From NCBI GenBank assembly GCA_947626975.1, contig CANQUF010000001.1, positions 22,980 through 86,979 on the forward strand: a DNA stretch of 64,000 nucleotides, written 5' to 3'. A model generated the notes under the pieces. It was not told the DNA's origin. It made no database searches and saw only the letters and a list, made by a program, of their open reading frames with translations. This DNA comes from an uncultured Clostridia bacterium. GTDB taxonomy: Bacteria; Bacillota; Clostridia; TANB77; CAG-465. Each line of letters opens with the position of its first letter. The stretch's first letter is position 1. The translations under genes were made by a program, and so were the position numbers. Shown here piece after piece: positions 14,501 through 33,475 of this stretch.

Positions 14501-15296
14501 CTCCTTCAATTGATGATGATGGATGTGTCCAACCTTCATCACGAGCTCGTAAAAGTGCATTAACAACTATAGATCTACCACCTGCTGTATTAGCTCCAAT
14601 ATTGAAAAAGTTATATAAGCCTTCATATCCAGGATATGACCCATTTATGCAATTATTATTTATTATGTCACCACTATTTTCTTGCCTTATTCTTGATGCT
14701 AAATGTACAGGGCTAACATTATATTTTTTACCATTTTCAGTTATTATATCAGAATATGACTTTTTTCCCGTTTCTCCATCAAGAAATAGCCAATTACCAT
14801 TATTTTTATATCTAACTCCGTAATATGAGTCACCCATAGGAGTTCCGTATAAAACTTTTTTTACCACATCTGATGTATCTACATTATTATTACTTGTTAC
14901 TGCAAATTGGAATATTTTTTCCTCATTTAAAAAATTTCTTGGATCTAAGCAATAACCAACTGCAGATTCTGAAGCATTAACCCATCCAGGTTCTATATTT
15001 TCTTCACTCTTTTTCCATTCTGATGAATAACTAGATGGTACCAAACTTCTTCTGTCAACAGTTTCATTATCTACTGTATTTTGCCAATCTAAATCAGTAT
15101 ATACAGCAACAAACTTCCAGTTGGGATGAATACTATGCAAATTTTGCAAATAAGTTTGATAGCTTTCAGGAAAAGCATTAATTCCTTCTACATATTGAGA
15201 TTTTGCATAAATAACATTTTTACCTAAAAATATTATAGCGATGAATATAAATAGTTTTATTATATTAATTTTACATTTTTTTATTTTATTTATCAT
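11532..15296 (-). CDS. secreted multidomain glycan/peptidoglycan hydrolase (GH73-like region, SH3b, many Big_2-like repeats)
   Basis: The N-terminal ~430 aa are paralogous to the 839-aa protein. The SH3b-like segment is GYVFSSY. After that come about eight ~65-aa Big_2-like repeats, the central four nearly identical, and further Big_2 domains to the C-terminus. Confidence 0.55.
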   Translation of the reverse strand: MINKIKKCKINIIKLFIFIAIIFLGKNVIYAKSQYVEGINAFPESYQTYLQNLHSIHPNWKFVAVYTDLDWQNTVDNETVDRRSLVPSSYSSEWKKSEENIEPGWVNASESAVGYCLDPRNFLNEEKIFQFAVTSNNNVDTSDVVKKVLYGTPMGDSYYGVRYKNNGNWLFLDGETGKKSYSDIITENGKKYNVSPVHLASRIRQENSGDIINNNCINGSYPGYEGLYNFFNIGANTAGGRSIVVNALLRARDEGWTHPSSSIEGAAKKIYNDYVKWGQDTVYFEKWDVNDITGGQSLYWMQYMTNILAPSSESSRIYSSYKACNMLDSSFVFHIPVFNNMTPTPVQVGEEAKFEDDHTKVYLDDTSDFGVKDTFIIRAEPNSNSAVVTKIIEDFEGQENRTIMTRIKKGINIQWDKVKLSDGTEGYVFSSYVKEYTGYTRVTGLTLNKEKIKIKSGQSEQLNATISPNNARFKDVIYTTNNSDVVTVDKNGIVTGRNIGDATVFAMSDDDLSIQDTCYVAVGYTDSFSVKVGETINIDLEKYGNCKIYTNNNEVLYVDSKGNVKGKFLGDATVFIDSLDGRRLAMFYVAVKYTDQFSLKIGEKIHIDGNGKKYYTNNNSVINLDNLGNITGKFLGDASVFVEDGNGNLIGLYYVGVHYTDSKSIKVGETINIGKTGIKYYTNNNSVINIDSSGNITGKFLGDASVFVEDGNGNLIGLYYVGVHYTNSKSIKVGETINIGKIGTRYYTNNNSVINVDNSGNVTGKFLGDASVFVEDKNGNLIGIYYVGVHYTDSKSIKVGEKINIDKIGIKYYTNNNDVINVDSSGNVTGKFLGDASVFVEDKNGNIIELCYIKVGYTDSKTVYFEDKLSFSYFFDTEKYGNCTLSTNNNTLLSIDNKNKLVTVNSSLGDCTLFIIDSSGNTKSMIYVNVKEYIKVEKIELNKDEFNVKVGESDKLDATVVPDNAKYKKLKYKSANEDLFTIDDDGNIYAKFLGNSKIIISSEDKTFNDVTCNVNLQYTASIETDMVTPKSIWNVLDVNNKKYSDAILKINNESVAKISQDGKLTPTGKGDATVFVQDINGNNLAMVYIKVIDYVKVTEIVLDKKELTLKSGDSCKINYKILPDNAKYKDVTFKVADSNIADVNSDGNIVAKSLGETIITVVSNDSSNLVYAQLKLNVEYTDHRTLSLENTYKVSDFINLADSKYINVHYETNNTSVFTVDENGIITPKGSGDATLFIKDENNNIKSMIYILVK
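12600..13750 (-). repeat. tandem ~195-bp intragenic repeats (encode ~65-aa Big_2-like units), core copies near-identical
   Basis: The DNA unit '...atcttctacaaatacacttgcatctcctaaaaattttcctgtta[ct]atttcctga...' recurs at about 12.78, 12.97, 13.17 and 13.36 kb with only a few mismatches. More diverged copies flank the core. Confidence 0.7.
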
Positions 15297-15408: not shown

Positions 15409-17577
15409 CTAATACGAAACCTTAAAAATCAATAAACCATATTCATCATAAAGTTTTTCAAATTTTATATTATCATTATTATATTTTTCTAAATTTTTGC
15501 TAGATAAAACATATTTAACATTAATATCGTCTAATTTGTCAGGATTAATATTTATCTTTATAGAATCAGGATATAATAATTCTAAATTTGTATCAATATC
15601 ATCAATATTGACACTTACATGTGCATATCTATTATAGATTTTTCTTATTTCTTCTTTTTGACTATCCTCACCTAATAAAGTTTTATATAATTCATAATTA
15701 GGATAATAATTTGTAGAATTTATTACTCTTGCACCATTTGCAACAACGTAATTTGGAACTGTAAAATTTAAATTATCAACTAGCCATAAGGCGTCTTTAT
15801 TTTCATTTACAATTTTTTGTATTTCTAAAGATACAGGTTTGTTATATATTACATTTATTCCTTTTATGATAGGATTTACTATAGCACCAGATAATATTGC
15901 AACAGACGATAGTATTACCATAAAATATTTCTTATATTTTGGTTTATTTAAATTAAACATAAGATAAAACAAAATAAATACTATTGTGCCTGATATAAAA
16001 CCTGAAACTGGTCCTAAATAATTAGATGGTCCATACTTAACAGCAAAAATTAAACATATAGTTGCAAAAACTCCAGAGAGTATAAAGCTAACTTTTTCTT
16101 TTAATAATTTGGTATCATCTTTAAAATTATTAATTAAATATATAATTAACAATATTTGTATATATCCTAAAGCTATTGCTGCCCTATGTGAAGGTATCAT
16201 ATATAATAATGTTATCTTTGCAAATATTTTATTAGTAGGGATAAAACACCATATAGAAAGTAAGATACTAACTAGTAATAACGGTATTAAAAAACTTAAT
16301 ATCTTTTTAAAATCTTTGCTTTTTCTTTTTCTATATAAATAGAGTAAAGCAATAATAATCGGCATAGGATATAAAGATAGCATATTTGAATTTTCACAAG
16401 GGTTTATCATGTCCTTAAGCGGTACAAAAATCGAATATACATATGAAAACATGTTATCTTGAGAATTTCCACCAATTTCAAATCTCTCTCCTGGATAGTC
16501 AGCATTAAGCGTTGCTGTAATAGCCTCATTTGAGATGATAAAAAATCTAGCAACGATTAAAACAACTAAAATGATTGTTATAATTATAGATAATACATCA
16601 ATTTTATTAATATGAAAATCTTTTCTATTTTTTAAAATAATCCATATTAGAATTGCAAGATAAACATATGCAAATGAAATCATCCATGCTGGATATAGTA
16701 TAAATATATAACAAATAGCACAAAATCCCACACCTAATATGTATAGACTTCTAAAATACCATTTTTTTTCAAGCATAAATTTATCTATTAAAACTAGCGC
16801 CAATTGTCCAAATATTAGTATATCTACTATAAAATTAGAATACCACCATTGCACAGCTGGAGAAAAAGTTATTACAAGCATTCCGAATAATGATACAAGC
16901 TTGTTTTTCTTAGTAAGTAACATACAAAATTCAAATGATATTAACATTAATGCTACTAATCTACCATACCACCAAAAAGATAATCCTACTTCATTACCAA
17001 ATAGAAGATACCCGATATTAAAAGGTTTCCCTATAATTAGAATATCTTTAACAGGAGCATTTATTACTGTAAACATGTCTGTTTTTGTTCCTCTAATATT
17101 CATATTAAAATATGGATAATTTTCATTTTCTTGTAAATTTTGAGAAAATATTAAAGGAGAATTTACGGCCCATTCATCTGAACGTATTGTCCTTGCTTTT
17201 CCTAAAATAGGAGTATACGTACTATCATTAGCCTCACTTTGTACAAAAAAATTATATGATGTAATTGATGAGCCTGAATATTTCATTATCATAGCAAAAA
17301 AAAGGAATAATAAAGCTAAAATAAATCTTTTTTTATATATCCACTGATACATATCATTAAGCCTAAAAATTAAATGTAATCCGGTAAATAATATAACTCC
17401 TGCAATTATAATAATTCTGTCTATACTAAAAGCTCCACTTTTTTTATAAATCACAAAAAACTCCATAAGAAAAGATAGTAATACGGCAACTAAAAACAAT
17501 ATAATTATTTTGATAAGTTTAAAATTATCTTTATTAAAAAAATTCAAAACTTTATTTCTTATCTTCTTTTTTGTCAT
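15409..17577 (-). CDS. polytopic membrane protein, candidate GT-C glycosyltransferase / oligosaccharyltransferase (YfhO- or WsaB-like)
   Basis: At least 12 predicted TM helices over ~520 aa, followed by a ~200-aa soluble C-terminal domain. The genomic context is GT2 plus a small membrane protein. No motif-level assignment was possible. Confidence 0.4.
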   Translation of the reverse strand: MTKKKIRNKVLNFFNKDNFKLIKIIILFLVAVLLSFLMEFFVIYKKSGAFSIDRIIIIAGVILFTGLHLIFRLNDMYQWIYKKRFILALLFLFFAMIMKYSGSSITSYNFFVQSEANDSTYTPILGKARTIRSDEWAVNSPLIFSQNLQENENYPYFNMNIRGTKTDMFTVINAPVKDILIIGKPFNIGYLLFGNEVGLSFWWYGRLVALMLISFEFCMLLTKKNKLVSLFGMLVITFSPAVQWWYSNFIVDILIFGQLALVLIDKFMLEKKWYFRSLYILGVGFCAICYIFILYPAWMISFAYVYLAILIWIILKNRKDFHINKIDVLSIIITIILVVLIVARFFIISNEAITATLNADYPGERFEIGGNSQDNMFSYVYSIFVPLKDMINPCENSNMLSLYPMPIIIALLYLYRKRKSKDFKKILSFLIPLLLVSILLSIWCFIPTNKIFAKITLLYMIPSHRAAIALGYIQILLIIYLINNFKDDTKLLKEKVSFILSGVFATICLIFAVKYGPSNYLGPVSGFISGTIVFILFYLMFNLNKPKYKKYFMVILSSVAILSGAIVNPIIKGINVIYNKPVSLEIQKIVNENKDALWLVDNLNFTVPNYVVANGARVINSTNYYPNYELYKTLLGEDSQKEEIRKIYNRYAHVSVNIDDIDTNLELLYPDSIKININPDKLDDINVKYVLSSKNLEKYNNDNIKFEKLYDEYGLLIFKVSY

Positions 17578-17929
17578 TTATAGTCTCCTCCAAAGCTAAA
17601 ATTTTCGCCTTCAAAATAGAAATTTCTTGTATTAATAATATAGTTCTATTTGCTTGCTTAGTTAATATCATAGTAAGTGAAAAAATCAAACCAAATGCAA
17701 TAAAAATAGTTAAACAAAATATCATATTTGAGGTTTGCTCAAATCCTAATAAATTAGATATTAATTCTATAAAATTAGGTATTAATATAGCCACCATTAA
17801 CAATATTCCTGTTATAATCCAAAAAATAGCAATAGAAGATTGCATTTTCCTTTTTTTTACTGAACTTATAATTAGATATAAATATATCACTGTTATAATT
17901 ATTAAAGCTACTCTAAGTGTAATAGACAT
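17552..17929 (-). CDS. small membrane protein, DUF2304-like (GT2-associated)
   Basis: Three TM helices plus a C-terminal amphipathic/coiled segment (LIQEISILKAKILALEE). The pattern (R-KGK-x-LxxSxxxIWI...LLGxE-P-N-LF) matches the DUF2304 family, which usually neighbours a Dpm1-like GT2. Confidence 0.45.
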   Translation of the reverse strand: MSITLRVALIIITVIYLYLIISSVKKRKMQSSIAIFWIITGILLMVAILIPNFIELISNLLGFEQTSNMIFCLTIFIAFGLIFSLTMILTKQANRTILLIQEISILKAKILALEETINDKKEDKK

Positions 17930-17930
17930 A

Positions 17931-18671
17931 TTATTCCTCCTTATATTTTCTTCTTTTCTTAAATCTCATACTATCAATAATAATAGAAATAGAAACCTTA
18001 ATCATGTAATCTATACTTTTTAAAAAATTAATAGAAGATTTTCCATTTTCTCTTTCGTTCATTGATACAGGAACTTCTTTAATATTATAACCTTCTTTAA
18101 TAACATTAACAAGTGATTCAGGTTCAGGATAATCAGTTGGATAGTCTAAAGTAAATAATTTAATAATTTCTTTATTAACTGCTCTAAATCCAGAGGTAGG
18201 ATCAGTTATCTTTTTACTAGTACATATTTTAATAATTATAGATATAATGTTTTTTCCTAGCCTTCTCATAAAAGTAGATTTAAATTTACTAGATTCATTA
18301 TCTAAATACCTAGAACCAATACATATATCTACATTTTCATTAATTAATGGTTTACAAATATCATTTACATAATTTATATCATGTTGCCCATCACCATCAA
18401 ATTGAATTGCAATGTCATAATTATTTTGATATGCATAATGATATCCTGTTTGAACAGCACCACCAATTCCTAGATTACTTATTAGATTAATTACATTCAT
18501 ACTATACTTTTTACAAATTTCTAACGTATTATCAGTAGAAGCATCATTTATTATTATATAATCTAATTTTACTTTGCTTTCTTTTTTATTAAATTCTTTA
18601 ATTTTTTTATATACACTTAAAATGTTTTTAGATTCATTATAAGCAGGTATAATCAATAATATTTTTTTCAT
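17931..18671 (-). CDS. glycosyltransferase family 2 (Dpm1/GtrB-like polyprenyl-phosphate sugar synthase, soluble form)
   Basis: IPAYNE N-terminus, INDASTDNT and a DGDGQHD (DxD) motif. Stop/start abuts the DUF2304-like gene. Confidence 0.7.
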   Translation of the reverse strand: MKKILLIIPAYNESKNILSVYKKIKEFNKKESKVKLDYIIINDASTDNTLEICKKYSMNVINLISNLGIGGAVQTGYHYAYQNNYDIAIQFDGDGQHDINYVNDICKPLINENVDICIGSRYLDNESSKFKSTFMRRLGKNIISIIIKICTSKKITDPTSGFRAVNKEIIKLFTLDYPTDYPEPESLVNVIKEGYNIKEVPVSMNERENGKSSINFLKSIDYMIKVSISIIIDSMRFKKRRKYKEE

Positions 18672-20945: not shown

Positions 20946-23900
20946 TTAATCAAATTTAATTGATAATCCTGTATTTTTTTTACTTAAATTTGGACTAAAG
21001 AATATATCACCTTTATCGTAATATTTTTCCCATTTTTTTATAAATTCTTCATCATTTTTATAGTTTTCTCCTATAATAGATAATTCTTCTATACAAAATG
21101 ATACCATAGGATTTATAACAACTTGTTTTTCTATATCTAATATTTTTAAACAAGTATCTATACTTGTTAACAAACCTTCAAAATCTTCAGTAAATCCATT
21201 AATTGCATTATATACATTTCTATCAATCATAGCATATTTTATATAGACGCATGACAAATTATGTATTATCTCAAGCCTTTGCATATATGTTCCTATATCT
21301 TTAGATACACCTTTATATATAAAATCACCTACTCCATTCATACCTAATACTATACCACAATGTTCAACTAAATTTTGTGAATTATACAACTTAGTTCCAA
21401 CAATTCCAACACTTGGATCTTGACATATTCCTAATAAATTTTCAATAAATAATTCATCATCTATTTCTAATAATTCATTATCAAAAATTATAAAATAATC
21501 TCCTGTACTATTATTTATAGCTTTATTATAACTACATATTATATTTTTATCTCCAAGAATTATTTTATCTACATCAAAGTTTTGTGATTTAAAATCAGTA
21601 ATAAGCACTAATTCCAAATTAGAATATTTAGATATTTTTATTTTTTGAATAATCTTTTTAATATCATCTACACTTGTGTTAAGTCCATCTATTATTATAC
21701 TAACTTTTGGATTTCCTTTCACCTTATAAGTTATATCATAGCTTCCCGGAGATAAACCATCAGTTACTTCTACTTCTGTATTTAGGCTTCTCATTATATG
21801 ATCTTTTATTACTTTCTTACCAATTTCATACGCGTATGGTTTAGAATCAGCATTTTGAGCAGTTGAATTAATATGTGAACGCCAATGGTATAAAACTTTA
21901 GGAATATGAATGATATTTTTTGTATTTTCCACTGCTCTGCAAACTATATCATAATCCTGACTTCCATCATATTCACTCCTAAATCCACCTATTTTTTCTA
22001 ATAAATCTTTCTTAAATATACTAAAATGACAAATATAATTAGCACTATTTAAAGTATAAGGTGAAAAGTCTGGTTTGAAAAATACTCCAAATCTATTTGA
22101 AAGACTATTTTCAAATTTATCTTCATCAGTATATATAAATTCAACATAAGGATTATCATTTATTGCTTTAGCTACCTCATACAAAGAAAATTTTGGCAAT
22201 AGGTCGTCATGATCTAAAAGTCCAATATAATCTCCTGTTGCAAGTTTTAATGCCTCATTAGTATTCCCAGAAATACCTTTATTTTCAGAAATAACAGTAT
22301 ATTTAATTCTTGAATCTCCTTTAAAAAATTTTTTAGCAAACTCTAATGGTTTAGGACTACCATCTGCAAGACACAATTCCCAATTAGAATAAGTTTGTTC
22401 AAACATGCAGTCAATTAATTCTTTTAAAAACTTTTTGGGAGTATTGTATAAAGGTACTACAATACTAATTTTAGGTTTAAAAAAAATTTTTTCTTCCTTT
22501 TGTTTACTAATTTCAATAGGATTAGGCTCATTTTTCTTTATCCATTTTTCATATATATATTTCTCTGAATGTAACTTTTCAACTTTATTTCTAAATATTT
22601 TTTTTACGAAATTTCTTCTTTTACTATTTAATGGAAACAATTTTCCGAATTTTATATTATTATTTGTTATTTTTTCTAATTCTAAAGTTTTTATATAGTC
22701 TTGCTTTTTTTTGTTATCACTTTCTAATAATTTTATATATTCGTTTTGCCTAATATTATTTAATTCATAATCTTCCAATTTTCCCTTTAATACACTAACG
22801 TAATTTGTATCATATAAATTTTCTAAAGAATTTTTATTTATATATTGCATTGTACTATCTACAATTTGACTTTGAATATATTTTTCAATTTTATCAAATA
22901 ATTTAATATATTGAGTAATATTATATCTATAAAACATTTCTTCTTTTGAAATTACACTCTGAATTTCAATATTATAAGAATAAAGATTTCTTATTGCTCT
23001 ATAAATTATAAATTCTAGAGGAATTCCAGTAAAACACCACTCTTGATCAAAAAAAACAAATTTTTCATCATTGATAAAAGTATTTTCAAAAACTAAATCT
23101 ATATAACAATTTTTTAAAATTATTAAATTTTCATAATTTTCTTTATCATCTAATAAAATATTTTCATTTAGTCTATATCTTTCAGAGTTTTGTAATTTTA
23201 ACTTTATTTCTTTATACCATAAATCAATTATTTTATAAACATCTTCGAATTGTTTGTTTAATATTTTTTTTACTATTATTTTATCTAATGTATCACCACT
23301 TATATAAGGACTAATTATCTTATTACTATCCAAGTAATCTGCAATATTGAAGTTCAATTTTTTTAATTCTTTTGTATTTTTATCTATATTTATAAGATGA
23401 TTTTTTGAACATTCGTTAATGTTATTCTTTATTACTATATTTGAATATATCTTTGTTAATAATTGGTATTGTTTCTTTCTATTATTATTATAACTTACAA
23501 ATTTCACTTTGGATAAATTAGTATCATTGCTTGCACCAATTTCAATTAAATAAGAATTAGAAAAAAAAGGTAATTGTTTATTTTTAGTTATTTGCTTTAA
23601 TGCTCTTAACTCATCAAATGTTACTACACTACCTTTAGTATATAAAACATTATACATAAGTTTAGTAGAAGTTTCACTTGGAATATATTCATCTGAAAAA
23701 ATAACATTTGGTATTTTATAATTTGGGAAAGGATAGTAAAATTTATAATTTAAAAGTCCAAGTTCCTTTAATTTGTTTTCTATTTCGTACTTACTAAATA
23801 TTATTGTATCATTACTAAGTATTGATTCATATAAATTTAGCTCTTCATACTTTGAGCCAGCAAAATACGTAATTCCAAATCTATTATCAGTTGCAAGTAA

Positions 23901-24365
23901 AATTATAGTTGTTTTTTTTGTAAATTTTTTTAAAAATGGTAATAATTCTAGTCTATATAAAAGAATATAATCAAATTTTTCATCTAATGTTATACTATCA
24001 ACATCACCTACTATTATTTCTAAATTCAGTTTATCTTCATATCTTTTAGCAATTGCCTTAGCTTTATCTATTGAAGGTTCAATTGCCACAACTTTATCCA
24101 GCTTATCACATAACTCTCCAGTAATTTCACCAAAATTAGCACCTATTTCTAAAATAGAACATTTTGGATTAAAATCATACCAATTTACAATATTTCTTCT
24201 ATAATCTGATAAAGCATAAATTTTCTCTATATCAGGATATTTCTTTAATATTTCTTCATACTCACTATTTGTACAATTATTTATGCAATCTAATATGCTT
24301 TTTTCATTACTATTTATATCAGATTCTTCATTTTTCTGTGTAATATAGCTTAAGTTTAACTTCAA
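20946..24365 (-). CDS. trifunctional SAM-methyltransferase / coiled-coil / dual-GT2 glycosyltransferase (WsaE-like)
   Basis: N-terminal class-I MTase (LEIGANFGEITGEL...IVGDVD) paralogous to the 428-aa protein. A ~150-aa Lys/Glu-rich predicted coiled region lies at aa 480-620. Two GT2 domains follow (ISIVVPLYNTPKKF...DGS and VSIIIDGLNT...), paralogous to the whole 599-aa protein. Apparent TTG start with an AAGGAGG RBS. Confidence 0.65.
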   Translation of the reverse strand: MKLNLSYITQKNEESDINSNEKSILDCINNCTNSEYEEILKKYPDIEKIYALSDYRRNIVNWYDFNPKCSILEIGANFGEITGELCDKLDKVVAIEPSIDKAKAIAKRYEDKLNLEIIVGDVDSITLDEKFDYILLYRLELLPFLKKFTKKTTIILLATDNRFGITYFAGSKYEELNLYESILSNDTIIFSKYEIENKLKELGLLNYKFYYPFPNYKIPNVIFSDEYIPSETSTKLMYNVLYTKGSVVTFDELRALKQITKNKQLPFFSNSYLIEIGASNDTNLSKVKFVSYNNNRKKQYQLLTKIYSNIVIKNNINECSKNHLINIDKNTKELKKLNFNIADYLDSNKIISPYISGDTLDKIIVKKILNKQFEDVYKIIDLWYKEIKLKLQNSERYRLNENILLDDKENYENLIILKNCYIDLVFENTFINDEKFVFFDQEWCFTGIPLEFIIYRAIRNLYSYNIEIQSVISKEEMFYRYNITQYIKLFDKIEKYIQSQIVDSTMQYINKNSLENLYDTNYVSVLKGKLEDYELNNIRQNEYIKLLESDNKKKQDYIKTLELEKITNNNIKFGKLFPLNSKRRNFVKKIFRNKVEKLHSEKYIYEKWIKKNEPNPIEISKQKEEKIFFKPKISIVVPLYNTPKKFLKELIDCMFEQTYSNWELCLADGSPKPLEFAKKFFKGDSRIKYTVISENKGISGNTNEALKLATGDYIGLLDHDDLLPKFSLYEVAKAINDNPYVEFIYTDEDKFENSLSNRFGVFFKPDFSPYTLNSANYICHFSIFKKDLLEKIGGFRSEYDGSQDYDIVCRAVENTKNIIHIPKVLYHWRSHINSTAQNADSKPYAYEIGKKVIKDHIMRSLNTEVEVTDGLSPGSYDITYKVKGNPKVSIIIDGLNTSVDDIKKIIQKIKISKYSNLELVLITDFKSQNFDVDKIILGDKNIICSYNKAINNSTGDYFIIFDNELLEIDDELFIENLLGICQDPSVGIVGTKLYNSQNLVEHCGIVLGMNGVGDFIYKGVSKDIGTYMQRLEIIHNLSCVYIKYAMIDRNVYNAINGFTEDFEGLLTSIDTCLKILDIEKQVVINPMVSFCIEELSIIGENYKNDEEFIKKWEKYYDKGDIFFSPNLSKKNTGLSIKFD

Positions 24366-24395
24366 TATACTACCTCCTTGTATAAAATTTAATAA

Positions 24396-26195
24396 TTAAT
24401 ATTTTTTACCAACATCAATTACAAATAAATAGCTATCTAATCTAAAATTTTTATTAAAATATGGATCTCCATCATTTAATTGTTTTTCCCATTTATTCTT
24501 AAATAATTCTATTTCACTAGCAAATCTTTTTCTTTTTTCAGGAGTATCTTCATTTCCCCTAGTTTTTGATTCATAATGATATAATTTTGCAAAAGGTGTA
24601 TATACAACTAAATACCCTTTTTCCCTTACTTTCATACAAAAATCAACATCATTAAATGCTACTTTAAAATCTGTATCCAGACCATTTACCTGATCATACA
24701 CTTTAGATTTTACTAATAAACATGCTGCAGTAACTGCAGAGAAATTATTGATGATATTTGCTCTTGAAAAATACCCCGGATCATTATCTTTTATGTTTTT
24801 ATGAATATGTCCTGCTACTCCTCCTATACCAATTATTACTCCAGCATGCTGTACTGTATTATCATAATATAATAATTTTGCACCTACAATTCCTACATTG
24901 TTTTGTTGACAAATTCCAAGCATTTCTTCAATCCAATTTTTAGTTATAATTTCAACATCATTATTTAATAATAATATATACTCACCTTTAGCAAATTTTC
25001 TACCAAAATTATTTATTTTAGAAAAATTAAATTCTTTTTCTTTATAATTTACAACTTGTACATTTTGATACTTTTGTAATGAATTATAATATTCAAAAAT
25101 ATCATCTTTTTCACTATTATTTTCTACAATTATAATTTCATAATTTTTGTATGATGATTTAAAAATTGAATGTAAACATTTTTTTAAATCCTCCAAAGAA
25201 TCTTTGTTAGGAATTATAATACTAACTAAAGGAGCTCCAACAATATCATAATTTACTTTATATGTACCTGGAACTTCAAGTAACTCAACACTTCCTTTTA
25301 TATTAAGTCTTTTAAGTTGATCTTCTATTGCATTTTTCCCTGCAATAAAAGCATAAGATTTAGAGTCAGTATTTTTTGAAGTTGAATTCTCATGCGCTCT
25401 CCAATGATATAAAATCTTAGGAATATGAACTATATTATTTGTACTCTCAGTTGCTCTTAATATTATATCATAATCTTGTGCACCATCGTATTTACTTCTA
25501 AAATTACCAATTTTATCTAATAAAGTCTTTTTAAATATACTAAAATGACATATATAATTATAACTTCTTAAAGTATCTGGTGAAAAATCTGGCTTAAAAT
25601 GTGGATTTTTTCTTACATACTTAGAATCTATTATATCCTCATCAGAATATATAAATTCTACACCAGGATTATTGTTTATAGTTTGTACCACTTCAAATAA
25701 AGAAAATTTAGGCAATAAATCATCATGATCTAGCAATGCAATATATTCTCCTGTAGCTAGTTTTAAAGCTTCATTCGTATTCTCTGATATTCCTTTATTA
25801 ACTCCTAAAAATTTATATACAAACCTATTATCATTCTCAAAGTACTTTTTTAACAATTCGTTTTCTTTTTCACTACCATCTGCTAAACACACTTCAAAAT
25901 TGCTGTATGTTTGATTTTTTAAACTTTCTATTAATTCAGCAAAGAATTTTTCATTTGTATTATACATTGGTACTAAAATGCTAATTTTAGGAGTATATTT
26001 AAATTTATAGTTAACTTGTTTCTTTAATTGATTATTATTAGGTTCATTGTTTTTAATCCATGTTTTATAGTCTACATTAAATCTAGAATATGTTTTAAAA
26101 ATTTTTATTTTCCTGATGACTTTTCTAATTGTCTCTTTTATTCCATAATTCTTTAAGTAATAAAATAATTTCTTTAACAATTTCATATATAACAC
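24396..26195 (-). CDS. dual-domain GT2 glycosyltransferase (polymerase-type)
   Basis: Two GT-A domains (ISILVPMYNTNEKF...LADGS and VSIIIPNKDSLEDL...IIVENNS), each with DxD-type motifs (LLDHDD, LLLNNDVE). Strong similarity to residues ~600-1139 of the upstream 1139-aa protein. Confidence 0.7.
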   Translation of the reverse strand: MLYMKLLKKLFYYLKNYGIKETIRKVIRKIKIFKTYSRFNVDYKTWIKNNEPNNNQLKKQVNYKFKYTPKISILVPMYNTNEKFFAELIESLKNQTYSNFEVCLADGSEKENELLKKYFENDNRFVYKFLGVNKGISENTNEALKLATGEYIALLDHDDLLPKFSLFEVVQTINNNPGVEFIYSDEDIIDSKYVRKNPHFKPDFSPDTLRSYNYICHFSIFKKTLLDKIGNFRSKYDGAQDYDIILRATESTNNIVHIPKILYHWRAHENSTSKNTDSKSYAFIAGKNAIEDQLKRLNIKGSVELLEVPGTYKVNYDIVGAPLVSIIIPNKDSLEDLKKCLHSIFKSSYKNYEIIIVENNSEKDDIFEYYNSLQKYQNVQVVNYKEKEFNFSKINNFGRKFAKGEYILLLNNDVEIITKNWIEEMLGICQQNNVGIVGAKLLYYDNTVQHAGVIIGIGGVAGHIHKNIKDNDPGYFSRANIINNFSAVTAACLLVKSKVYDQVNGLDTDFKVAFNDVDFCMKVREKGYLVVYTPFAKLYHYESKTRGNEDTPEKRKRFASEIELFKNKWEKQLNDGDPYFNKNFRLDSYLFVIDVGKKY

Positions 26196-26210: not shown

Positions 26211-27350
26211 TTATTTAATATTTTTAAAAATATCCACACTATCAAGTTTTTCCCAATAACACTCAATTTCTTCTTTATCATCTAAATATTTTCTTCCAAA
26301 ATGCCCACCATTACAAGAATTAGTGTAAATAGGTGTACGTAAATTAAGTTTTTCAATTATTCCCTTTGGAGATAAATCAAAGTTATCATATATTGATTTA
26401 ATTATTTTGGCCTCTTCCACTTTATTAGTTCCTTTACAATTTACACTTATCGAAATTGGCTGTGCTACCCCAATTGCATAAGAAAGTTGAATTAGACATT
26501 CGTCTGCAATTTTTGACGCAACTATATTCTTAGCTAAGTATCTTGCCATATATGCAGCAGAACGATCAACTTTAGTAGGATCTTTTCCAGAGAAAGCACC
26601 GCCCCCATGTGGAGCATATCCGCCATATGTATCAACTATTATTTTCCTTCCTGTAAGACCAGCATCTCCCTCTGGTCCCCCAATAACAAATCTTCCAGTA
26701 GGATTAATAAGTATTTTAAAATCTTCATTTAAATTATATTTTCTAGCAATAACCTTCATAATGTGTTCGATAATATATTTTTTAAACTTGTCCTCATTAT
26801 AATTACTATCATGTTGAATAGACATTAACATTGTATCAATTCTTACTTTTTTTGATGTATAATCTAATGTTACTTGAGATTTCATATCAGGACCTGCCCA
26901 TTCAAATTTTCCAGATTTTCTTAGTACTGTAGCAAGTTTAACAAGTTCATGTGCCATAGTAATAGCTAGAGGCATAAATTGTGGTGTTTCAGTATTTGCA
27001 TATCCAAACATTATACCTTGATCACCTGCTCCACCAACATCATCATTTGTACCAAGTGCAATATCTTGTGATTGTTTTTGTAATAAATTTAATACTCTTG
27101 GAGTATATGTATATCCTATACTTTTAATAGTTTTTTTTACAATTTCTTCTACATTTATATTTGCTTTTGTTGTAATTTCACCTGAAAGAATAATAAAATC
27201 ATCTTTTGCCATTGTTTCACATGCAACTCTAGAATATTTATCTTCTTTTAAACAAGCATCAAGTATTGAGTCTGATATCATATCACATACATGATCAGGA
27301 TGTCCGATTGATACTGCTTCAGATGTAAATAATTTTTTATACTCACTCAT
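26211..27350 (-). CDS. metK: S-adenosylmethionine synthetase (methionine adenosyltransferase), divergent copy embedded in glycan locus
   Basis: MetK signatures: FTSEAVSIGHPDHVCDMISDSILDA, GAGDQG and GGGAFSGKDPTKVDRSAAY. The 27-nt upstream gap leaves no room for an S-box riboswitch. Confidence 0.85.
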   Translation of the reverse strand: MSEYKKLFTSEAVSIGHPDHVCDMISDSILDACLKEDKYSRVACETMAKDDFIILSGEITTKANINVEEIVKKTIKSIGYTYTPRVLNLLQKQSQDIALGTNDDVGGAGDQGIMFGYANTETPQFMPLAITMAHELVKLATVLRKSGKFEWAGPDMKSQVTLDYTSKKVRIDTMLMSIQHDSNYNEDKFKKYIIEHIMKVIARKYNLNEDFKILINPTGRFVIGGPEGDAGLTGRKIIVDTYGGYAPHGGGAFSGKDPTKVDRSAAYMARYLAKNIVASKIADECLIQLSYAIGVAQPISISVNCKGTNKVEEAKIIKSIYDNFDLSPKGIIEKLNLRTPIYTNSCNGGHFGRKYLDDKEEIECYWEKLDSVDIFKNIK

Positions 27351-27377: not shown

Positions 27378-28664
27378 TTATTTTTTTATTTTCTTGTTAA
27401 TTTTTCTTATTATATTTGTATATCTCCATGTTCTTGAATGATATATTTTCTCTAATTCTTCCTTTAATAACTTTGACTCATTAGTTAATTTACAAACGGA
27501 ATTATTTAAATTTGCAATATTTTCTTCTTGTGTCATATATCTGTTAGAAAAAAATCTACAAAGATTCTCATTTTCTCCTTTTTCACCAAGTTTTAATTCT
27601 TTTTTAAGTTCACCAGAATTTGTTATATTAATTTTTTCTCTTTTTTTATCTTTAAACAAATCCAATTTTTCTTTTTCATATACTCCATTACTTGTTTTCG
27701 TAATCATATATAAATCGTTTAAATTAGCCTTACTATTGAATACTGCAAAATCAATTTCATTTTTTAACTTATCTTCACTACATTCAATGAAAAAAGAATT
27801 AGCAAAAAAGTCAAATTTATTTTCTTTAATTAACTCTTTATATGCTTTTTTTTCTTCAAAATTTAGTATTGTATTATCATAATAATATGGAGAATATAAA
27901 TTATCTATATCTTCTTCTAGTGGCAAACATTCATCAGAAAATATAACATTTGGTAATTTATAATCTGGAAGAGGATAATAAAATCTAACATTTGATAATC
28001 CATTTCTAGTAAGTAGATCCTGAATTTCTTTTTTTCCAAATGTAATAGGCCCTTTTTTGTTACTATATCCAACAATACCATCATATTTTATACTTGTATG
28101 ATCTTCAACTGCACCTGCAAAATATTTAATACCAAATTTATTTTCAATTGCAATTAAAAGCTTTCCATCAGGTTTTAATAGCTTTTTAATATTAGTTAAA
28201 AATTCATCAAAAGGATTATCTGATTTAGTAAATAAATTAGCATATTCTAAAACCCCAATAAGAGTAATATAATCAAATTTTTTGTCAAATTTTATATCAT
28301 TCAAATTACCTACAATAATTTCTAAATTATCACATTTTTTATGTTTAGAAGCAATAACACTTGCCCTCTGCTTAGAAAGCTCAATTGAAGTAACAGATTT
28401 TGCTTTTTTACAAAGTACTCCAGTAATAGCACCCATTCCAGCTCCAATTTCAAGAATATCAGAATTTTTCTTAAATGGATACCAATTTAATATATTTTCT
28501 CTTATATATGTAAAATGATAAAAAACAGGCCATCTCATATCATTAGATAATATATCATTATATTTATCTCTAGAAAAATTTTCAGAATATTTCATTATAT
28601 CTTTTTCTACTTCACCATCACAATATGAATCTTCTCCATTATAATAATCATAGTTTATTTTCAT
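27378..28664 (-). CDS. class-I SAM-dependent methyltransferase with C-terminal coiled-coil (WbdD-like chain terminator candidate)
   Basis: MTase motif I LEIGAGMGAITGVL, an acidic motif II and LLKPDGKLLIA. The C-terminal ~60 aa are predicted coiled-coil. It overlaps wzt by 17 nt. Confidence 0.65.
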   Translation of the reverse strand: MKINYDYYNGEDSYCDGEVEKDIMKYSENFSRDKYNDILSNDMRWPVFYHFTYIRENILNWYPFKKNSDILEIGAGMGAITGVLCKKAKSVTSIELSKQRASVIASKHKKCDNLEIIVGNLNDIKFDKKFDYITLIGVLEYANLFTKSDNPFDEFLTNIKKLLKPDGKLLIAIENKFGIKYFAGAVEDHTSIKYDGIVGYSNKKGPITFGKKEIQDLLTRNGLSNVRFYYPLPDYKLPNVIFSDECLPLEEDIDNLYSPYYYDNTILNFEEKKAYKELIKENKFDFFANSFFIECSEDKLKNEIDFAVFNSKANLNDLYMITKTSNGVYEKEKLDLFKDKKREKINITNSGELKKELKLGEKGENENLCRFFSNRYMTQEENIANLNNSVCKLTNESKLLKEELEKIYHSRTWRYTNIIRKINKKIKK

Positions 28665-29997
28665 TATTTATCCCCTTTTTTAGTTCTATCTGTGTTTTTA
28701 TATCAAATACACCTAAACAATCTCTATTTGCTAGGACTTCTACAAACATAACATCATATTTTCTTTGAAAAACTTCAAGATTACCGTTATGATCCAATTT
28801 TGTACATCCAAATGATAATGTATACTTATCTGGAGCTAATGGTAATACTTGTTTAAACTCAACAATAACAATATCTCCCTTTTCATAAGTTCCTGTAATT
28901 TTTTTATATGCAAAAGTATTTGCACCACATAATTCTAGCCCTTTAAAATCTTTAATTGACATTGCAAATATTGGCTCATCTATTTGCTCAATAAACTTAA
29001 CTTTCATTTTAATAACTACTTCATCATTATTATTTATTGTAGTCAAAAAATTATTATTAACATCAAATATACCATAATCTATTATTTCAGCCTTCCCGTT
29101 ACCATATACAAGCTCATCAGAATTAAGAGTGAAATGTTCTTTCCAAACCTCACCTTTTTTTTCTTTTCTCTTCTCTTCTTTTATAACATTTAGTTCTTTT
29201 TCTTCTTTTTCCTGTTCATCAATTTGTTTTTTATCAAGTCCTACAATTATTTTTTTATATTTATCTACACCTTGTTTTACATCTCCATCATATATCTTTC
29301 TTCCAGATGAAATTATAATAGCCCTATTGCAATTTTTTATTACATCTACTATATTATGAGTAACAAAAAGTATTGTTTTTCCTTTTTTCTTAAATTCTTC
29401 AAATTTTTTAAAACACTTTAATTGAAAAGCCATATCACCTACAGATAAAACTTCGTCGACTATTAAAACTTCAGGATCTACATTTATAGCACAGGCAAAT
29501 GCTAAACGTGCAAACATACCTGACGAATAGGTTTTTACTGGCTGATATAAATGTTCACCTATATCAGCAAACTCTATAATTTCTTTTTCTGTTTGTTTTA
29601 CTTGTTCCATTGTAAGGCCCATAACTAAACCATTTTGATATATATTTTCATATCCTGTAAGTTCAGGATTAAAAGCTGTACCTAGCTCTAGTAAAGAACT
29701 TATTTTCCCATTTACTTCTATATTACCAGATGTTGGAGTTACTACTCCAGTAATCATTTTTAAAAGTGTAGATTTACCAGCACCATTTTTCCCAAGTATT
29801 CCTACAACTTCTCCTTTATTTATGTTTAAATTTAAATCTTGAATCGCATTAAATGTACTATGTCTAGAGACTGCCGGAATTACAGTTTCTATTAGCCTAT
29901 CTAACTTTCTATTATACATTTTGTACTCTTTATTTAAATTAGTTATACAAATTACTGGTTTTTCTTTATTATTTTTGATTTTTATATCTTTTGCCAT
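28648..29997 (-). CDS. wzt: polysaccharide ABC exporter ATP-binding protein with C-terminal extension (Wzt/TagH/RgpD-like)
   Basis: Walker A GKNGAGKST, signature YSSGM, Walker B LIVDE and an H-loop. About 190 extra C-terminal residues are predicted beta-rich, consistent with a glycan-binding domain. Confidence 0.8.
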   Translation of the reverse strand: MAKDIKIKNNKEKPVICITNLNKEYKMYNRKLDRLIETVIPAVSRHSTFNAIQDLNLNINKGEVVGILGKNGAGKSTLLKMITGVVTPTSGNIEVNGKISSLLELGTAFNPELTGYENIYQNGLVMGLTMEQVKQTEKEIIEFADIGEHLYQPVKTYSSGMFARLAFACAINVDPEVLIVDEVLSVGDMAFQLKCFKKFEEFKKKGKTILFVTHNIVDVIKNCNRAIIISSGRKIYDGDVKQGVDKYKKIIVGLDKKQIDEQEKEEKELNVIKEEKRKEKKGEVWKEHFTLNSDELVYGNGKAEIIDYGIFDVNNNFLTTINNNDEVVIKMKVKFIEQIDEPIFAMSIKDFKGLELCGANTFAYKKITGTYEKGDIVIVEFKQVLPLAPDKYTLSFGCTKLDHNGNLEVFQRKYDVMFVEVLANRDCLGVFDIKTQIELKKGINNENKL

Positions 29998-30006
29998 TTT
30001 TATTTA

Positions 30007-30984
30007 TCACACCCTTTTTATTAATGATCTTATTTTATATAGTGGCTTAACTAAAATAGGAAAATTAAATATAAAAAATAAAGCTAAATATAATAAAATT
30101 CTTTCATTTTTATATATTTTATTAAAAGTTATTAATCCTTTAAAGTTCATATATTTTTTATCTTTTATATTTAAATAGTATTGTAAATATTTTTTATTAA
30201 GTTCATTTTGATAATTTGTAAATAAATTACTATTTTCAATAAAAGTAGAAAAATTATTAATTCTTAAATTTATTAAATGCTCCCTTACGCTGTCAAAATC
30301 ACTTAATTTATCAACATATCTAGATGAGCCTACTTGATTATTTGAATGTTGTCTATACTTTATAGTTGGTATATCTAAATATACTACTTTACCTTTTAAA
30401 GCTACAATAAGTCCTATCCAATAGTCATATAAAATATTTTTATTATTTGGAAATGGAAGAAAGTTTATAATCCAACTTTTTTTTGAAAGTATAGTACATC
30501 CTGTAATAGTATTATATAATACTTCTAAGTCATAACCATTATTTATGCATTTTTTTATTTTACGATTATAATTTTTTAATCTATTAAACGATTTATTTAT
30601 AGTAATCAATTTTTCATCAACAACTTCTAAATCTGTAAATACTAAATCTGCTTTTTCTTCAATTAGTTTGTTATATGTTAATTCTATTTTATCTTTATTC
30701 CATATATCATCTTGATCAGCAAACATAAAATATTTATTTTCAACTTTAGATAACAAAAATTCAAAAGTTTTATTTGAGCCTATATTTTTAGAATTTTTAT
30801 ATAACTCAATTCTATTATCTTTTTTTATATAATCTTCTATTATTGATACTGTATTATCCGTAGAGCAATCATCACATACTAATAATCTAAAGTTGATATA
30901 TGTTTGATTTATTATAGAATTTATTAATTCACCTATATACTTTTTTCCATTATATGTAGCAAGAAGTATATCAATTTTTTCCAT
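30007..30984 (-). CDS. glycosyltransferase family 2 (rhamnosyltransferase-like, RgpB/WbbL-type)
   Basis: ATYNGKKYIGELINSIINQTY...CDDCSTDNT N-terminus and a DQDDIW acidic motif. It sits between wzt and wzm. Confidence 0.7.
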   Translation of the reverse strand: MEKIDILLATYNGKKYIGELINSIINQTYINFRLLVCDDCSTDNTVSIIEDYIKKDNRIELYKNSKNIGSNKTFEFLLSKVENKYFMFADQDDIWNKDKIELTYNKLIEEKADLVFTDLEVVDEKLITINKSFNRLKNYNRKIKKCINNGYDLEVLYNTITGCTILSKKSWIINFLPFPNNKNILYDYWIGLIVALKGKVVYLDIPTIKYRQHSNNQVGSSRYVDKLSDFDSVREHLINLRINNFSTFIENSNLFTNYQNELNKKYLQYYLNIKDKKYMNFKGLITFNKIYKNERILLYLALFFIFNFPILVKPLYKIRSLIKRV

Positions 30985-30995
30985 GGTTGCTCTCC

Positions 30996-31787
30996 TTATA
31001 ATACATCTGCAAAATCTTTTTTATTTTTCTTAAATACATAATTACTCCATATAAATATTATGAATACAAAAATCCAAAATATTATAGTTGGTATTCCATG
31101 CATTGCTAATATATGTGTTTCACCTGTAAAAGCACATCTAAATCCATTTACTAAATAAGTAAATGGCATACAACTTACTATCTTATATAATAGTTGATGA
31201 CCTTGTAGCATTGATATATTCCAAATAATTGGAGTAAACCAAAATAAAAGTTGCATAAGCACACCCAAAAGTTGTACAAAGTCAGGAACCAAAGTACAAA
31301 TTGCAGAGGTTAGCCTAGTTATAGAAATTATAAGAGCATATACTGCTATAAGTAAATATATTAATTCTATTACATTTATAATATATCCATATATAGCACA
31401 TACAACAATTGATATTATAAATAGAAATATTCCTACAATACCTGCAGATGTTAATGATATAACAGGAATTATATCAACAGGAAAAACTACTTTTTTTACT
31501 AAATAACTATAATTTCTTATAGAACCACTTGCATTTAAAATGCTGTCATTTATTAACATCCACATGGACATACCTGGTAAGAACCAAACAACATAAGGAT
31601 AATTACCAGCACTACCAGTTTTTAATATATATTGAAAAACAATAACATAAGTAAGCATAAATATAAATGGAGAAACAAAGCCCCATATGGCTCCTAGACT
31701 TGTACCCGCAAATCTATTTTTAAAATCATTTTTCCCTAGTTGAGCAACTAGTTTTCTATTCTTAATCAATGTTTTTATAAATTCCAT
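30996..31787 (-). CDS. wzm: polysaccharide ABC exporter permease (ABC-2 type; Wzm/TagG/RgpC-like)
   Basis: Six predicted TM helices, 263 aa, paired with wzt. Confidence 0.75.
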   Translation of the reverse strand: MEFIKTLIKNRKLVAQLGKNDFKNRFAGTSLGAIWGFVSPFIFMLTYVIVFQYILKTGSAGNYPYVVWFLPGMSMWMLINDSILNASGSIRNYSYLVKKVVFPVDIIPVISLTSAGIVGIFLFIISIVVCAIYGYIINVIELIYLLIAVYALIISITRLTSAICTLVPDFVQLLGVLMQLLFWFTPIIWNISMLQGHQLLYKIVSCMPFTYLVNGFRCAFTGETHILAMHGIPTIIFWIFVFIIFIWSNYVFKKNKKDFADVL

Positions 31788-32867: not shown

Positions 32868-32881
32868 TTAATTTCCTCCAT

Positions 32882-33475
32882 TTATTTTAGATTTTTAAAT
32901 AAATCTGACTTTTTTAATTCTTGTAAAGATGGCCATTTAGCATCTTTCTCAGATGTTAAAAGTTCTTCTTTAGAAATATTATCCATAGGCCAATTAATAC
33001 CTACATCTGGATCATTCCATTTAAGTCCACCCTCAGATTCATGATTATATACATCATCACATTTATATGCAAATTCTGCTTCATCAGATAGTACTAAAAA
33101 TCCATGAGCAAATCCTCTTGGTATCATAAACATTTTTTTATTTTCTTCAGAAAGAATCACACCTTCCCATTTACCATAAGTTTTACTATTTGGTCTTAAA
33201 TCAACAGCCACATCAAAAACTTTACCTTTTAGACACCTTACAAGTTTTGCTTGTGAATTTTCTTTTTGAAAATGAAGACCTCTTAAAACACCTTTCTTGG
33301 ATTTAGATTGATTGTCTTGAACAAATTTATTTGTTATTCCAATTTCAGCGAACTCACTTTCACTATATGTTTCCATAAAATACCCTCTACTATCGCCAAA
33401 AACTGTTGGTTCAATAATATATACTCCCTCAATACTAGTATCAGTTTTTTTAAATTTTCCCATTAAATTATTCAC
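32882..33475 (-). CDS. rmlC: dTDP-4-dehydrorhamnose 3,5-epimerase
   Basis: Cupin-fold RmlC pattern ([17 protein letters not shown]), 197 aa. Confidence 0.85.

Follow-up and report, generated by a model that had tools for sequence, protein, structure and literature searches.

The 64,000-nucleotide stretch of DNA analysed here (the window) encodes a 1139-aa protein that probably acts as terminator and scaffold in an ABC-transporter-dependent rhamnose-polysaccharide pathway of the ORF6-O7 type, with intact paralogs of its altered domains encoded next door; we give this reading a probability of roughly 0.6. ORF6 of K. pneumoniae O7 combines methyltransferase, kinase, coiled coil and two GT2 domains and caps a rhamnan with methyl-phosphate (Kelly et al., J Biol Chem 2024; PMC11231755). 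The order in the 1139-aa protein is methyltransferase-like, kinase, helical spacer, GT2 and GT2, and profile comparison identifies its middle part as an overlooked kinase-like domain homologous to the kinase of ORF6-O7. The locus represents a modified form of a system already known, and reveals no new kind. Its features are:

20946-24365, minus strand: open reading frame of the 1139-aa protein, TTG start
23691-24365, minus strand: residues 1-225, N-terminal helices and a class I methyltransferase-like domain (MT-like domain)
22821-23690, minus strand: residues ~226-515, kinase-like domain, aminoglycoside-kinase type
22497-22808, minus strand: residues 520-623, helical spacer (long helix and basic helical linker, ending in WIKKNEPN)
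21720-22496, minus strand: residues 624-882, GT2-A, intact GT-A glycosyltransferase with DHDD (DXDD)
20949-21719, minus strand: residues 883-1139, altered GT2-B, GT-A-like fold without donor-side motifs
24396-26195, minus strand: open reading frame of the 599-aa protein, dual GT2
26211-27350, minus strand: metK, S-adenosylmethionine synthetase, between the methyltransferase and dual GT2 genes
27378-28664, minus strand: 428-aa protein, intact SAM methyltransferase (residues 39-244)
28648-29997, minus strand: wzt with C-terminal carbohydrate-binding domain (Pfam ABC_tran and Wzt_C, the latter E 8e-33)
30007-30984, minus strand: 325-aa GT2 (Pfam Glycos_transf_2), probable adaptor transferase
30996-31787, minus strand: wzm (Pfam ABC2_membrane)
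31905-35200, minus strand: rmlB, rmlC, rmlA and rmlD, dTDP-L-rhamnose synthesis

Both open reading frames singled out in an earlier note on this DNA are real, and NCBI holds a sequence identical to the 1139-aa protein (P0001). The exact GTG-start sequence of the 599-aa protein was not in the protein collection, and its translation probably begins at the fourth codon, an ATG. The two paralogies proposed in that note were recovered. Residues 1-336 of the 1139-aa protein align with the 428-aa methyltransferase (35% identity, E 3e-52), with the LEIGAxxGxITG and LEIIVG motifs inside the alignment, and the similarity of about 540 aa to the 599-aa dual GT2 spans residues 587-1127 (45% identity, E 6e-145) and includes the common WIKxNEPN junction. 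The accompanying domain parse was incomplete in that it missed the kinase-like domain, and Pfam recognizes a single GT2 in the 1139-aa protein (PF00535, residues 634-793, E 7e-29) and a sub-threshold methyltransferase (Methyltransf_11, E 0.0035 only). The host was placed as a low-GC, spore-forming Firmicute.

The MT-like domain has a Rossmann-type fold in the AlphaFold model (pLDDT >90), a motif I that reads GANFG, and a deletion of a ~15-aa loop past strand 4. It keeps 23 and has lost 12 of the 35 positions that are conserved across 28 family members with GxGxG, and of the six SAM-contact residues of ORF6-O7 it retains the equivalents of Y66, G91 and E112 and lacks three (Y28 is E, G93 is N, and Y158 is deleted). 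The 428-aa protein, by comparison, keeps 33 of the 35 positions and all six contact equivalents and matches Pfam Methyltransf_11/12/25 with E 1e-10 to 1e-12. Its methyltransferase is followed by a kinase N-lobe remnant (residues 245-363) without the catalytic loop, which covers no more than positions 2-119 of the 298 in the kinase HMM, the kinase core being lost, and then by a short coiled coil (heptad score 0.70 at 379-406) and an IYHSRTWRYT tail; its gene begins 17 nt before wzt ends. The supposed capping methyltransferase of the 1139-aa protein is in this light its most doubtful catalytic part, and the intact enzyme is the separate 428-aa protein. The nearest relatives (L003, L004) also have a separate intact methyltransferase, 63% identical to the 428-aa protein, and in P0006 and P0007 an intact 428-like methyltransferase is fused directly onto a degenerate-methyltransferase-kinase module.

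GT2-A contains LLDHDDLL and keeps 34 of 35 family-invariant columns, and the earlier assignment of two GT2 domains to the 1139-aa protein stands for this first one. It fails in the motifs of the second: the altered GT2-B keeps 11 of 36 family-invariant columns, has no match in Pfam, scores 87 bits against the GT2-B HMM (homologues, 185-337), shares 32% identity with its counterpart in the 599-aa protein, and forms the longest branch of the GT2-B tree. The changes are IIPNKD to IIDGLN, ENNS to TDFKS, NND to DNE, NDVD to TSID and HYESxxRG to IEELSIIG, with FNFS deleted. The fold is nevertheless predicted with pLDDT ~90, and the lineage is conserved in no fewer than 15 clusters (49-66% identity). 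It keeps H-x-G and one Asp each at the DXD and xDxC positions, and on these grounds may be active in an unconventional way.

The 599-aa protein, with GT2-A at 61-318 (DHDD) and GT2-B at 319-599 (NND, NDVD, HYES), has two PF00535 stretches (E 3e-43) and all family motifs, of which NXD and DXDD correspond to motifs that ORF6-O7 has been shown to require. Presumably the main rhamnan polymerase, the protein bears the pair's only canonical GT2-B, which makes it something other than the mere cap-less copy it had been taken for. A recent duplication had been suggested as well. The two GT2-A domains are 60.7% identical and no closer to each other than either is to homologues from other genomes, and the duplication is thus old. 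One or two further dual GT2 genes are present in related loci, a hint that the polymerases comprise several enzymes.

These observations bear on an alternative in which every domain of the 1139-aa protein is active, the kinase and both glycosyltransferases as well as a methyltransferase with a variant motif, and the 428-aa and 599-aa proteins do something additional, e.g., methylate a second time (sugar O-methyl), form another linkage or block, or make a second variant of the polymer. Inactivity of a methyltransferase does not follow from a GxNxG motif I; catechol O-methyltransferase is active despite its GAYCG motif. P0003, P0004 and P0005 all retain the ANFGE motif, and no other methyltransferase is found in the loci of P0003 (L010) and P0005 (L001), so that the MT-like domain may still bind SAM or some other ligand. 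The alternative also draws on the motif GANFGEITGELC, identical in P0005 (36% identical overall), on the ribose-binding Glu retained past strand 2, on the purifying selection and own conserved motifs of the altered GT2-B, and on the extra dual GT2 genes. We nevertheless regard it as unlikely, since the altered GT2-B lacks all donor-side motifs found without exception from Firmicutes to Proteobacteria, the MT-like domain has lost about a third of its conserved positions with half of the SAM contacts among them, and the closest relatives have deleted the N-terminal, SAM-binding half of the methyltransferase fold from a terminator whose gene is kept beside the intact methyltransferase.

The kinase-like domain carries a catalytic-loop motif IDLVFEN (D423, N428) followed by FFDQEW (D440, E442), and these four residues (D-x4-N ... 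D-x-E-W) are invariant in a 17-sequence alignment. Comparison by hhalign with the middle domain of proteobacterial ORF6-O7-like proteins (probability 98.9%, E 2e-17, 238 columns) pairs IDLVFEN with IDAVPQN and FFDQEW with LIDLEW. We infer from this that D423 is equivalent to D441 of ORF6-O7, by way of a proxy (P0098) rather than the ORF6 sequence itself; the proxy bears Y28, Y66, G91, G93, E112 and Y158 at exactly the published ORF6-O7 numbering. The AlphaFold model of the domain is confident (pLDDT 83). Among the 50 Foldseek PDB matches listed, only WbdD entries span both N-terminal domains, aligning over 518-540 columns, and the rest align over 197-326; for 4AX8, 4AZT, 4AZS and 4AZW the E values are 4e-8 to 2e-7 but the TM scores only 0.19-0.28. 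The domain has ~1006 cluster representatives in a library of 1.84 billion proteins. The coiled region of ~150 aa that had been predicted here is mostly this globular domain of ~290 aa (226-515).

It could be argued that the domain does not phosphorylate the glycan end and instead transfers another phospho-group or a nucleotide, or is a non-catalytic binder, with termination by another route. No Pfam model matches it, phmmer and hmmsearch against PDB sequences gave no match, WbdD included, its identity to the ORF6-O7-type family in the profile alignment is only ~16%, and the position of K313 is not conserved in the proteobacterial profile. Such a role is improbable in view of the D-x4-N and D-x-E-W motifs that are invariant across the family, their alignment with the motif that holds the experimentally essential Asp of ORF6-O7, and the consistent linkage of the domain to wzt genes bearing Wzt_C.

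Between kinase and GT2-A, AlphaFold predicts helices at 520-573 (pLDDT 55-82) and 581-611 (pLDDT <50), the first of which is a putative short coiled coil of ~55 aa at most. The heptad score of the spacer peaks at 0.30, compared with 0.53-0.70 in homologues, and the distance from the end of the kinase to the start of GT2-A is 100 aa, compared with 164-247 aa in the other fusions measured. The ruler-like coiled coil of the earlier note thus gives way to a kinase and a single long helix, and a ruler role for the spacer is uncertain because the helix is short and its heptads weak. A WsaE-like pathway, in which the N-terminal methyltransferase O-methylates the terminal rhamnose directly, a coiled coil serves as ruler and the 599-aa protein arose by recent duplication as a cap-less copy, can point to two real paralogies and to a methyltransferase...GT2-GT2 order and rhamnose context that resemble WsaE as described (PMC2943079), but it is very improbable, being contradicted on the coil and on recent duplication and facing a globular kinase-like middle with invariant catalytic-type residues and an in-protein methyltransferase that is a degraded copy.

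The surrounding genes agree with the earlier proposal of a terminator-plus-polymerase fusion in an ABC-transporter-dependent rhamnan pathway, with rmlDACB, wzm and a wzt that includes Wzt_C in the locus. MetK has the Pfam S-AdoMet_synt N, M and C domains (E 5e-33 to 7e-64), and the rml genes match GDP_Man_Dehyd/Epimerase, dTDP_sugar_isom, NTP_transferase and RmlD_sub_bind. Wzm and Wzt are predicted to form an exporter that reads the cap, and related loci keep the gene order wzm, GT2 (~324 aa), wzt. An initiating phosphoglycosyltransferase was not identified in the examined part of the locus.

In the terminator-and-scaffold reading that we prefer, RmlABCD would make dTDP-L-rhamnose, and a lipid-linked chain would be extended by the 599-aa dual GT2, the full polymerase, acting in trans, and probably also by GT2-A of the 1139-aa protein. 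The latter's kinase domain would phosphorylate the non-reducing terminal sugar in cis, and the 428-aa methyltransferase would methylate the terminal phosphate in trans, using SAM from the adjacent MetK. The cap would then be recognized by the C-terminal carbohydrate-binding domain of Wzt, and the chain exported by Wzm/Wzt. The MT-like domain and the altered GT2-B probably have structural, acceptor-binding or complex-forming roles. Homology of the domains, the state of their motifs and the neighbouring genes are observed directly; the chemistry of the cap, the inactivity of particular domains and the assembly of a complex are inferred. A division of labour with the neighbouring paralogs had been the right idea, as seen in the unequal conservation of the methyltransferase and GT2-B pairs and in a 428-aa protein without kinase core. 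A more tentative extension, which we consider possible but doubtful, is that an old duplication of terminator and dual-GT2 modules was followed by reciprocal single-domain decay, giving a heteromeric polymerase-terminator machine of three paralogs with an unusually short spacer. The 428-aa protein would in that case have kept the methyltransferase and the 1139-aa protein the kinase and GT2-A, and the MT-like domain and altered GT2-B would be conserved non-catalytic "pseudoenzyme" domains, the latter keeping acceptor-side loops and serving as a glycan-end reader or as a surface that docks the 599-aa protein to the kinase.

Export-coupled chain termination is how length is controlled in many O-antigens, S-layer glycans and cell-wall polysaccharides. 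For the rhamnose-rich cell-wall polysaccharides of Gram-positives, there is so far no experimental evidence on how rhamnan chain length is set (PMC9574508). The ORF6-O7-type methyltransferase-kinase was characterized only in 2024 and in Proteobacteria only, and the present locus places its kinase module in Clostridia-type Gram-positives; the domain as a whole has at least 1000 cluster representatives and no Pfam model. It also constitutes a natural experiment, in that for methyltransferase, kinase and second glycosyltransferase alike just one paralogous protein has the intact copy, and such a split could help to tell domains required for catalysis from those required for assembling the complex.

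Several known systems share parts of this organization. The best structural matches of the tandem GT-A/GT-A half are E. coli K4 chondroitin polymerase K4CP and Pasteurella PmHS2 (PDB 2Z86/2Z87, 8VH7; 530-580 columns), which differ in having 13-16% identity, other sugars, two active domains and no terminator module. WbdD of E. coli O9a and K. pneumoniae O3 is a bifunctional methyltransferase-kinase terminator followed by a coiled coil (PDB 4AZS, 4AZT, 4AZW, 4AX8; PMC3482155). It recruits the dual-GT polymerase WbdA, a separate protein, and the carbohydrate-binding module of Wzt reads the cap. Unlike the 1139-aa protein, WbdD has no fused glycosyltransferase, acts on a mannan and lacks a sequence-level match, and its eukaryotic-protein-kinase-like kinase has been described as structurally unlike the ORF6-O7 type. 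WsaE, of the Geobacillus stearothermophilus S-layer glycan, shares with the 1139-aa protein a Gram-positive ABC-transporter-dependent rhamnan and, according to its published description, an N-terminal methyltransferase with two rhamnosyltransferase domains and a methyl-containing cap that terminates the chain; it is reported to 2-O-methylate rhamnose directly, and no kinase is described (PMC2943079). The apparently intact kinase of the 1139-aa protein argues for a cap chemistry unlike that of WsaE.

With a kinase in the middle, the closest characterized analogue is K. pneumoniae O7 ORF6 rather than WsaE, the analogue first proposed, which is further away. ORF6-O7 adds first phosphate and then methyl to the terminal Rha in biochemical assays, the D441A mutant is dead, and the motif mutated in its first GT2 is DXDD (PMC11231755). 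The two proteins share their domain order, including a previously unannotated AmiN-like kinase and a DXDD GT2, and both loci have dTDP-Rha genes and Wzm/Wzt. The 1139-aa protein differs in having no Ig-like carbohydrate-binding module past the kinase, a much shorter spacer than fusions of this type, a second GT2 without NXD and other donor-side motifs, and a methyltransferase domain short of half of its SAM contacts. At the present locus, intact methyltransferase, metK and intact dual GT2 are instead separate genes, and the host is a Gram-positive of the Clostridia type where that of ORF6-O7 is a proteobacterium.

Two adjoining minus-strand reading frames carry the argument:

20946-24365, minus strand: 1139-aa ORF, TTG start
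24396-26195, minus strand: 599-aa ORF, GTG start as listed

Both lie where the earlier note had placed them, in a window of about 25% GC with nearly all genes on the minus strand, and the two paralogies drawn there are borne out by BLASTP. The 599-aa dual GT2 aligns with residues 587-1127 of the 1139-aa protein at 45% identity (E 6e-145), WIKxNEPN junction included, and the separate 428-aa methyltransferase with residues 1-336 at 35% identity (E 3e-52). The accompanying domain parse was incomplete, and the middle of the 1139-aa protein had been mis-parsed. Pfam recognizes one GT2 domain only in this protein (634-793) and a sub-threshold methyltransferase match (E 0.0035), and returns no match in residues 140-620. 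An identical copy of the 1139-aa sequence is present in NCBI. For the 599-aa ORF the listed GTG (26186-26195, minus strand; MLYMKLLKK...) is unlikely to be the true initiation codon, since the exact sequence was not found in the protein collection and an ATG stands at codon 4.

The region proposed to be a coil of about 150 aa is, on alignment and structure prediction, a putative kinase. In the AlphaFold model (pLDDT 83) a Rossmann-type domain reaches to about residue 225 and a second globular domain covers 226-515; one long helix at 520-573 and a low-confidence helix at 581-611 follow. The coiled part is short. When the N-terminal half is aligned with its homologues (17 sequences), D423, N428, D440 and E442 are invariant and W443 nearly so; they sit in IDLVFEN...FFDQEW, spaced as in a kinase catalytic loop plus metal-binding Asp. 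Among the 50 PDB matches listed by Foldseek, the only ones to align over more than about 330 columns are four entries (518-540) of WbdD, the methyltransferase-kinase terminator of E. coli O9a, and these alignments span both globular domains. Searches of PDB sequences with the 1139-aa protein, the 428-aa protein and the 17-sequence profile gave generic methyltransferase and GT2 matches and no WbdD. When the N-terminal half was compared pairwise by BLASTP with P0098, a protein resembling ORF6 of Klebsiella pneumoniae O7, only the methyltransferase region aligned, and the kinase homology needed profile-profile comparison. Forty Firmicute kinase-like domains, the present one included, matched 14 ORF6-like middle domains with a probability of 98.9% (E 2e-17, 238 columns), both catalytic motifs being in register. 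No Pfam model matches the domain, yet a search of 1.84 billion clusters gave about 1006 representatives of it at E ≤ 1e-3, most of them within proteins of 500-650 aa. Between the end of the kinase and the first GT2 domain (GT2-A) lie 100 aa, versus 164-247 aa in other fusions, and the heptad score of this spacer peaks at 0.30, versus 0.53-0.70 in homologues.

Of 35 positions with ≥90% conservation across 28 family members of the GxGxG type, the methyltransferase-like domain of the fusion, here MT*, keeps 23 and the 428-aa protein 33. A search from P0014, a homologous protein, for ORF6-O7 itself yielded only the near-orthologues P0098 and P0099, whose numbering equals that of ORF6-O7 in the methyltransferase domain and is offset by 3-5 residues further on; in P0098 the published numbering of the SAM-contact residues Y28, Y66, G91, G93, E112 and Y158 holds exactly. 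The 428-aa protein retains counterparts of all six residues, whereas the 1139-aa protein has lost those of Y28, G93 and Y158. We nevertheless reject calling MT* dead from motif I alone: COMT has GAYCG as its motif I and COMT-type enzymes accept a non-Gly residue at that position, and ANFGE is a conserved motif in proteins from loci with no other methyltransferase. A non-Gly residue in motif I of MT* is thus no proof of inactivity. The 428-aa protein in turn matches only the first 119 or so of 298 kinase-profile positions, lacks the catalytic motifs and runs on from this remnant into a short, clear coiled coil. Its C-terminus (27381-27440, minus strand) contains IYHSRTWRYT, an instance of the motif (N/G/H)S.(S/T)W(K/R/L).(T/S) that ends the coiled coil in stand-alone terminators and proteobacterial fusions, e.g. 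NSASWKISAPFR, and that recurs in P0012, P0005, P0014, P0095 and P0098; its S-x-S-W part is missing in the 1139-aa protein.

The two GT2 domains of the fusion have fared differently. GT2-A is 60.7% identical to that of the 599-aa protein. Of the 35 columns that do not vary among 18 homologues spanning Firmicutes to Proteobacteria, it keeps 34, DHDD among them. The altered second domain, GT2-B*, is 32% identical to its 599-aa counterpart, to which all other family members show about 40-55% identity; no branch of the tree is longer than its own, and 11 of the 36 invariant columns survive in it. Its losses cluster on the donor side (IIPNKD, ENNS, NND, NDVD, HxESxxRG and FNFS, the last deleted), although the fold is still confidently predicted, and it retains H-x-G and, at each of two motif positions, a single Asp. 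The tandem GT-A pair structurally resembles K4CP and PmHS2.

The surrounding genes form an operon-like array: rmlD-rmlA-rmlC-rmlB, wzm, a GT2 gene (325 aa) and wzt with Wzt_C, then the 428-aa methyltransferase, metK, the dual GT2 and the fusion, followed by a GT2-GT4 gene (742 aa) and GT2, DUF2304 and DUF7657/7654 genes. We propose, with a probability of about 0.6, that rhamnose would be polymerised by the 599-aa dual GT2, probably together with the fusion's GT2-A, and that the kinase domain of the fusion would phosphorylate the terminal sugar; the 428-aa methyltransferase, supported by the adjacent MetK, would methylate the phosphate, and the carbohydrate-binding module (CBM) of Wzt would read this cap for export of the chain. 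For MT* and GT2-B*, a structural, acceptor-binding or docking role is the most likely. That all domains of the 1139-aa protein are active we consider improbable given the losses in these two domains. The tolerance of motif I, the conservation of ANFGE and the residual residues of GT2-B* would suit such a protein, and these caveats set the weight of both readings. A recent duplication, as the earlier note had suggested, is rejected on the GT2-A and GT2-B trees: the GT2-A domains of the two proteins resemble each other no more closely than they resemble homologues from elsewhere, and the duplication is therefore old. Decaying junk is ruled out for GT2-B* because its lineage is conserved, being common to the closest relatives (loci L003 and L004) and to 15 or more metagenomic clusters (49-66% identity), with strongly conserved motifs of its own, e.g. 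VEHxGIxLGMNGxGDFxYKGxPKDxGTYMQRL.

A search with the single 1139-aa protein gave seven related loci. The related loci compared keep the order wzm, GT2 (about 324 aa), wzt with CBM, a variable slot, terminator and dual GT2. An intact stand-alone methyltransferase fills the slot in the window, L003, L004 and L011; it is empty in L010, and elsewhere holds a membrane-anchored metallo-beta-lactamase-fold protein (Pfam Lactamase_B, weak to clear):

L001, 7132-8043: metallo-beta-lactamase-fold protein
L012, 9107-9988: metallo-beta-lactamase-fold protein
L013, 9065-9988: metallo-beta-lactamase-fold protein

These proteins have about 300 aa and an N-terminal membrane helix; another probably lies at L011 5643-6488. 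Bearing on the division of labour are both fused and split forms. The metagenomic proteins P0006 (858 aa) and P0007 (846 aa) each carry a tandem pair of methyltransferase domains, in the order intact 428-like methyltransferase with kinase N-lobe remnant, degenerate methyltransferase, intact kinase and coiled coil, and are a single-chain version of the 428-aa protein and the N-terminal half of the fusion. In L003 (9890-13251) and L004 (9911-13183), both from uncultured Clostridia MAGs, the equivalent of the fusion is split into a terminator gene, in which the SAM-binding half of MT* is wholly lost, and a separate GT2-A/GT2-B* gene with its own ribosome-binding site, in L003 a GGAGGA, with a hairpin also lying between the two genes. 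The GT part is split once more in L004; some of these splits may be assembly errors, as several other genes of these MAGs look fragmented.

The complete metK (S-adenosylmethionine synthetase; 26211-27350, minus strand), between the putative capping methyltransferase and the dual GT2, occurs inside the polysaccharide operon in none of the related loci examined. After the locus (15409-18671, minus strand) come a GT2 (246 aa), DUF2304 (125 aa) and a 722-aa DUF7657/DUF7654 membrane protein, a trio or pair recurring in L001 and L012 and suggestive of a module that adds side chains outside the cytoplasm. Directly downstream of the glycan locus, a 1254-aa protein (11532-15296, minus strand) combines three Big_2 Ig-like domains with a hyaluronate-lyase N-terminal beta-sheet domain, and a cadherin-like/Big_13 protein is encoded at 10736-11518. 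Both may be surface proteins with a relation to the polymer. The glycan locus lies downstream of mreBCD and a PBP gene, and the same genome encodes a spore-germination permease. Its features are those of a Clostridia-like spore-former of about 25% GC.

This kind of system is already known. The methyltransferase-X-coil-GT2-GT2 architecture is widespread, with at least 663 matches in Proteobacteria alone (Pantoea, Pseudomonas syringae and E. coli among the carriers), and was characterised experimentally in 2024 (PMC11231755). The direct precedent is K. pneumoniae O7 ORF6, in which a methyltransferase at the N-terminus is followed by an AmiN-like kinase that had gone unannotated, a coiled coil and two GT2 modules (DXDD and NXD motifs) that depend on dTDP-Rha; a methyl-phosphate caps the rhamnan and the D441A mutant is inactive (PMC11231755). 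WsaE of Geobacillus stearothermophilus, compared by its published description, has the same outline as the 1139-aa protein and is reported to O-methylate rhamnose directly (PMC2943079). The window locus differs from ORF6 in its Gram-positive host, in the absence of the ORF6 CBM from the 1139-aa protein, in the very short spacer, and in the way intact and altered domains are divided reciprocally among three paralogous proteins.
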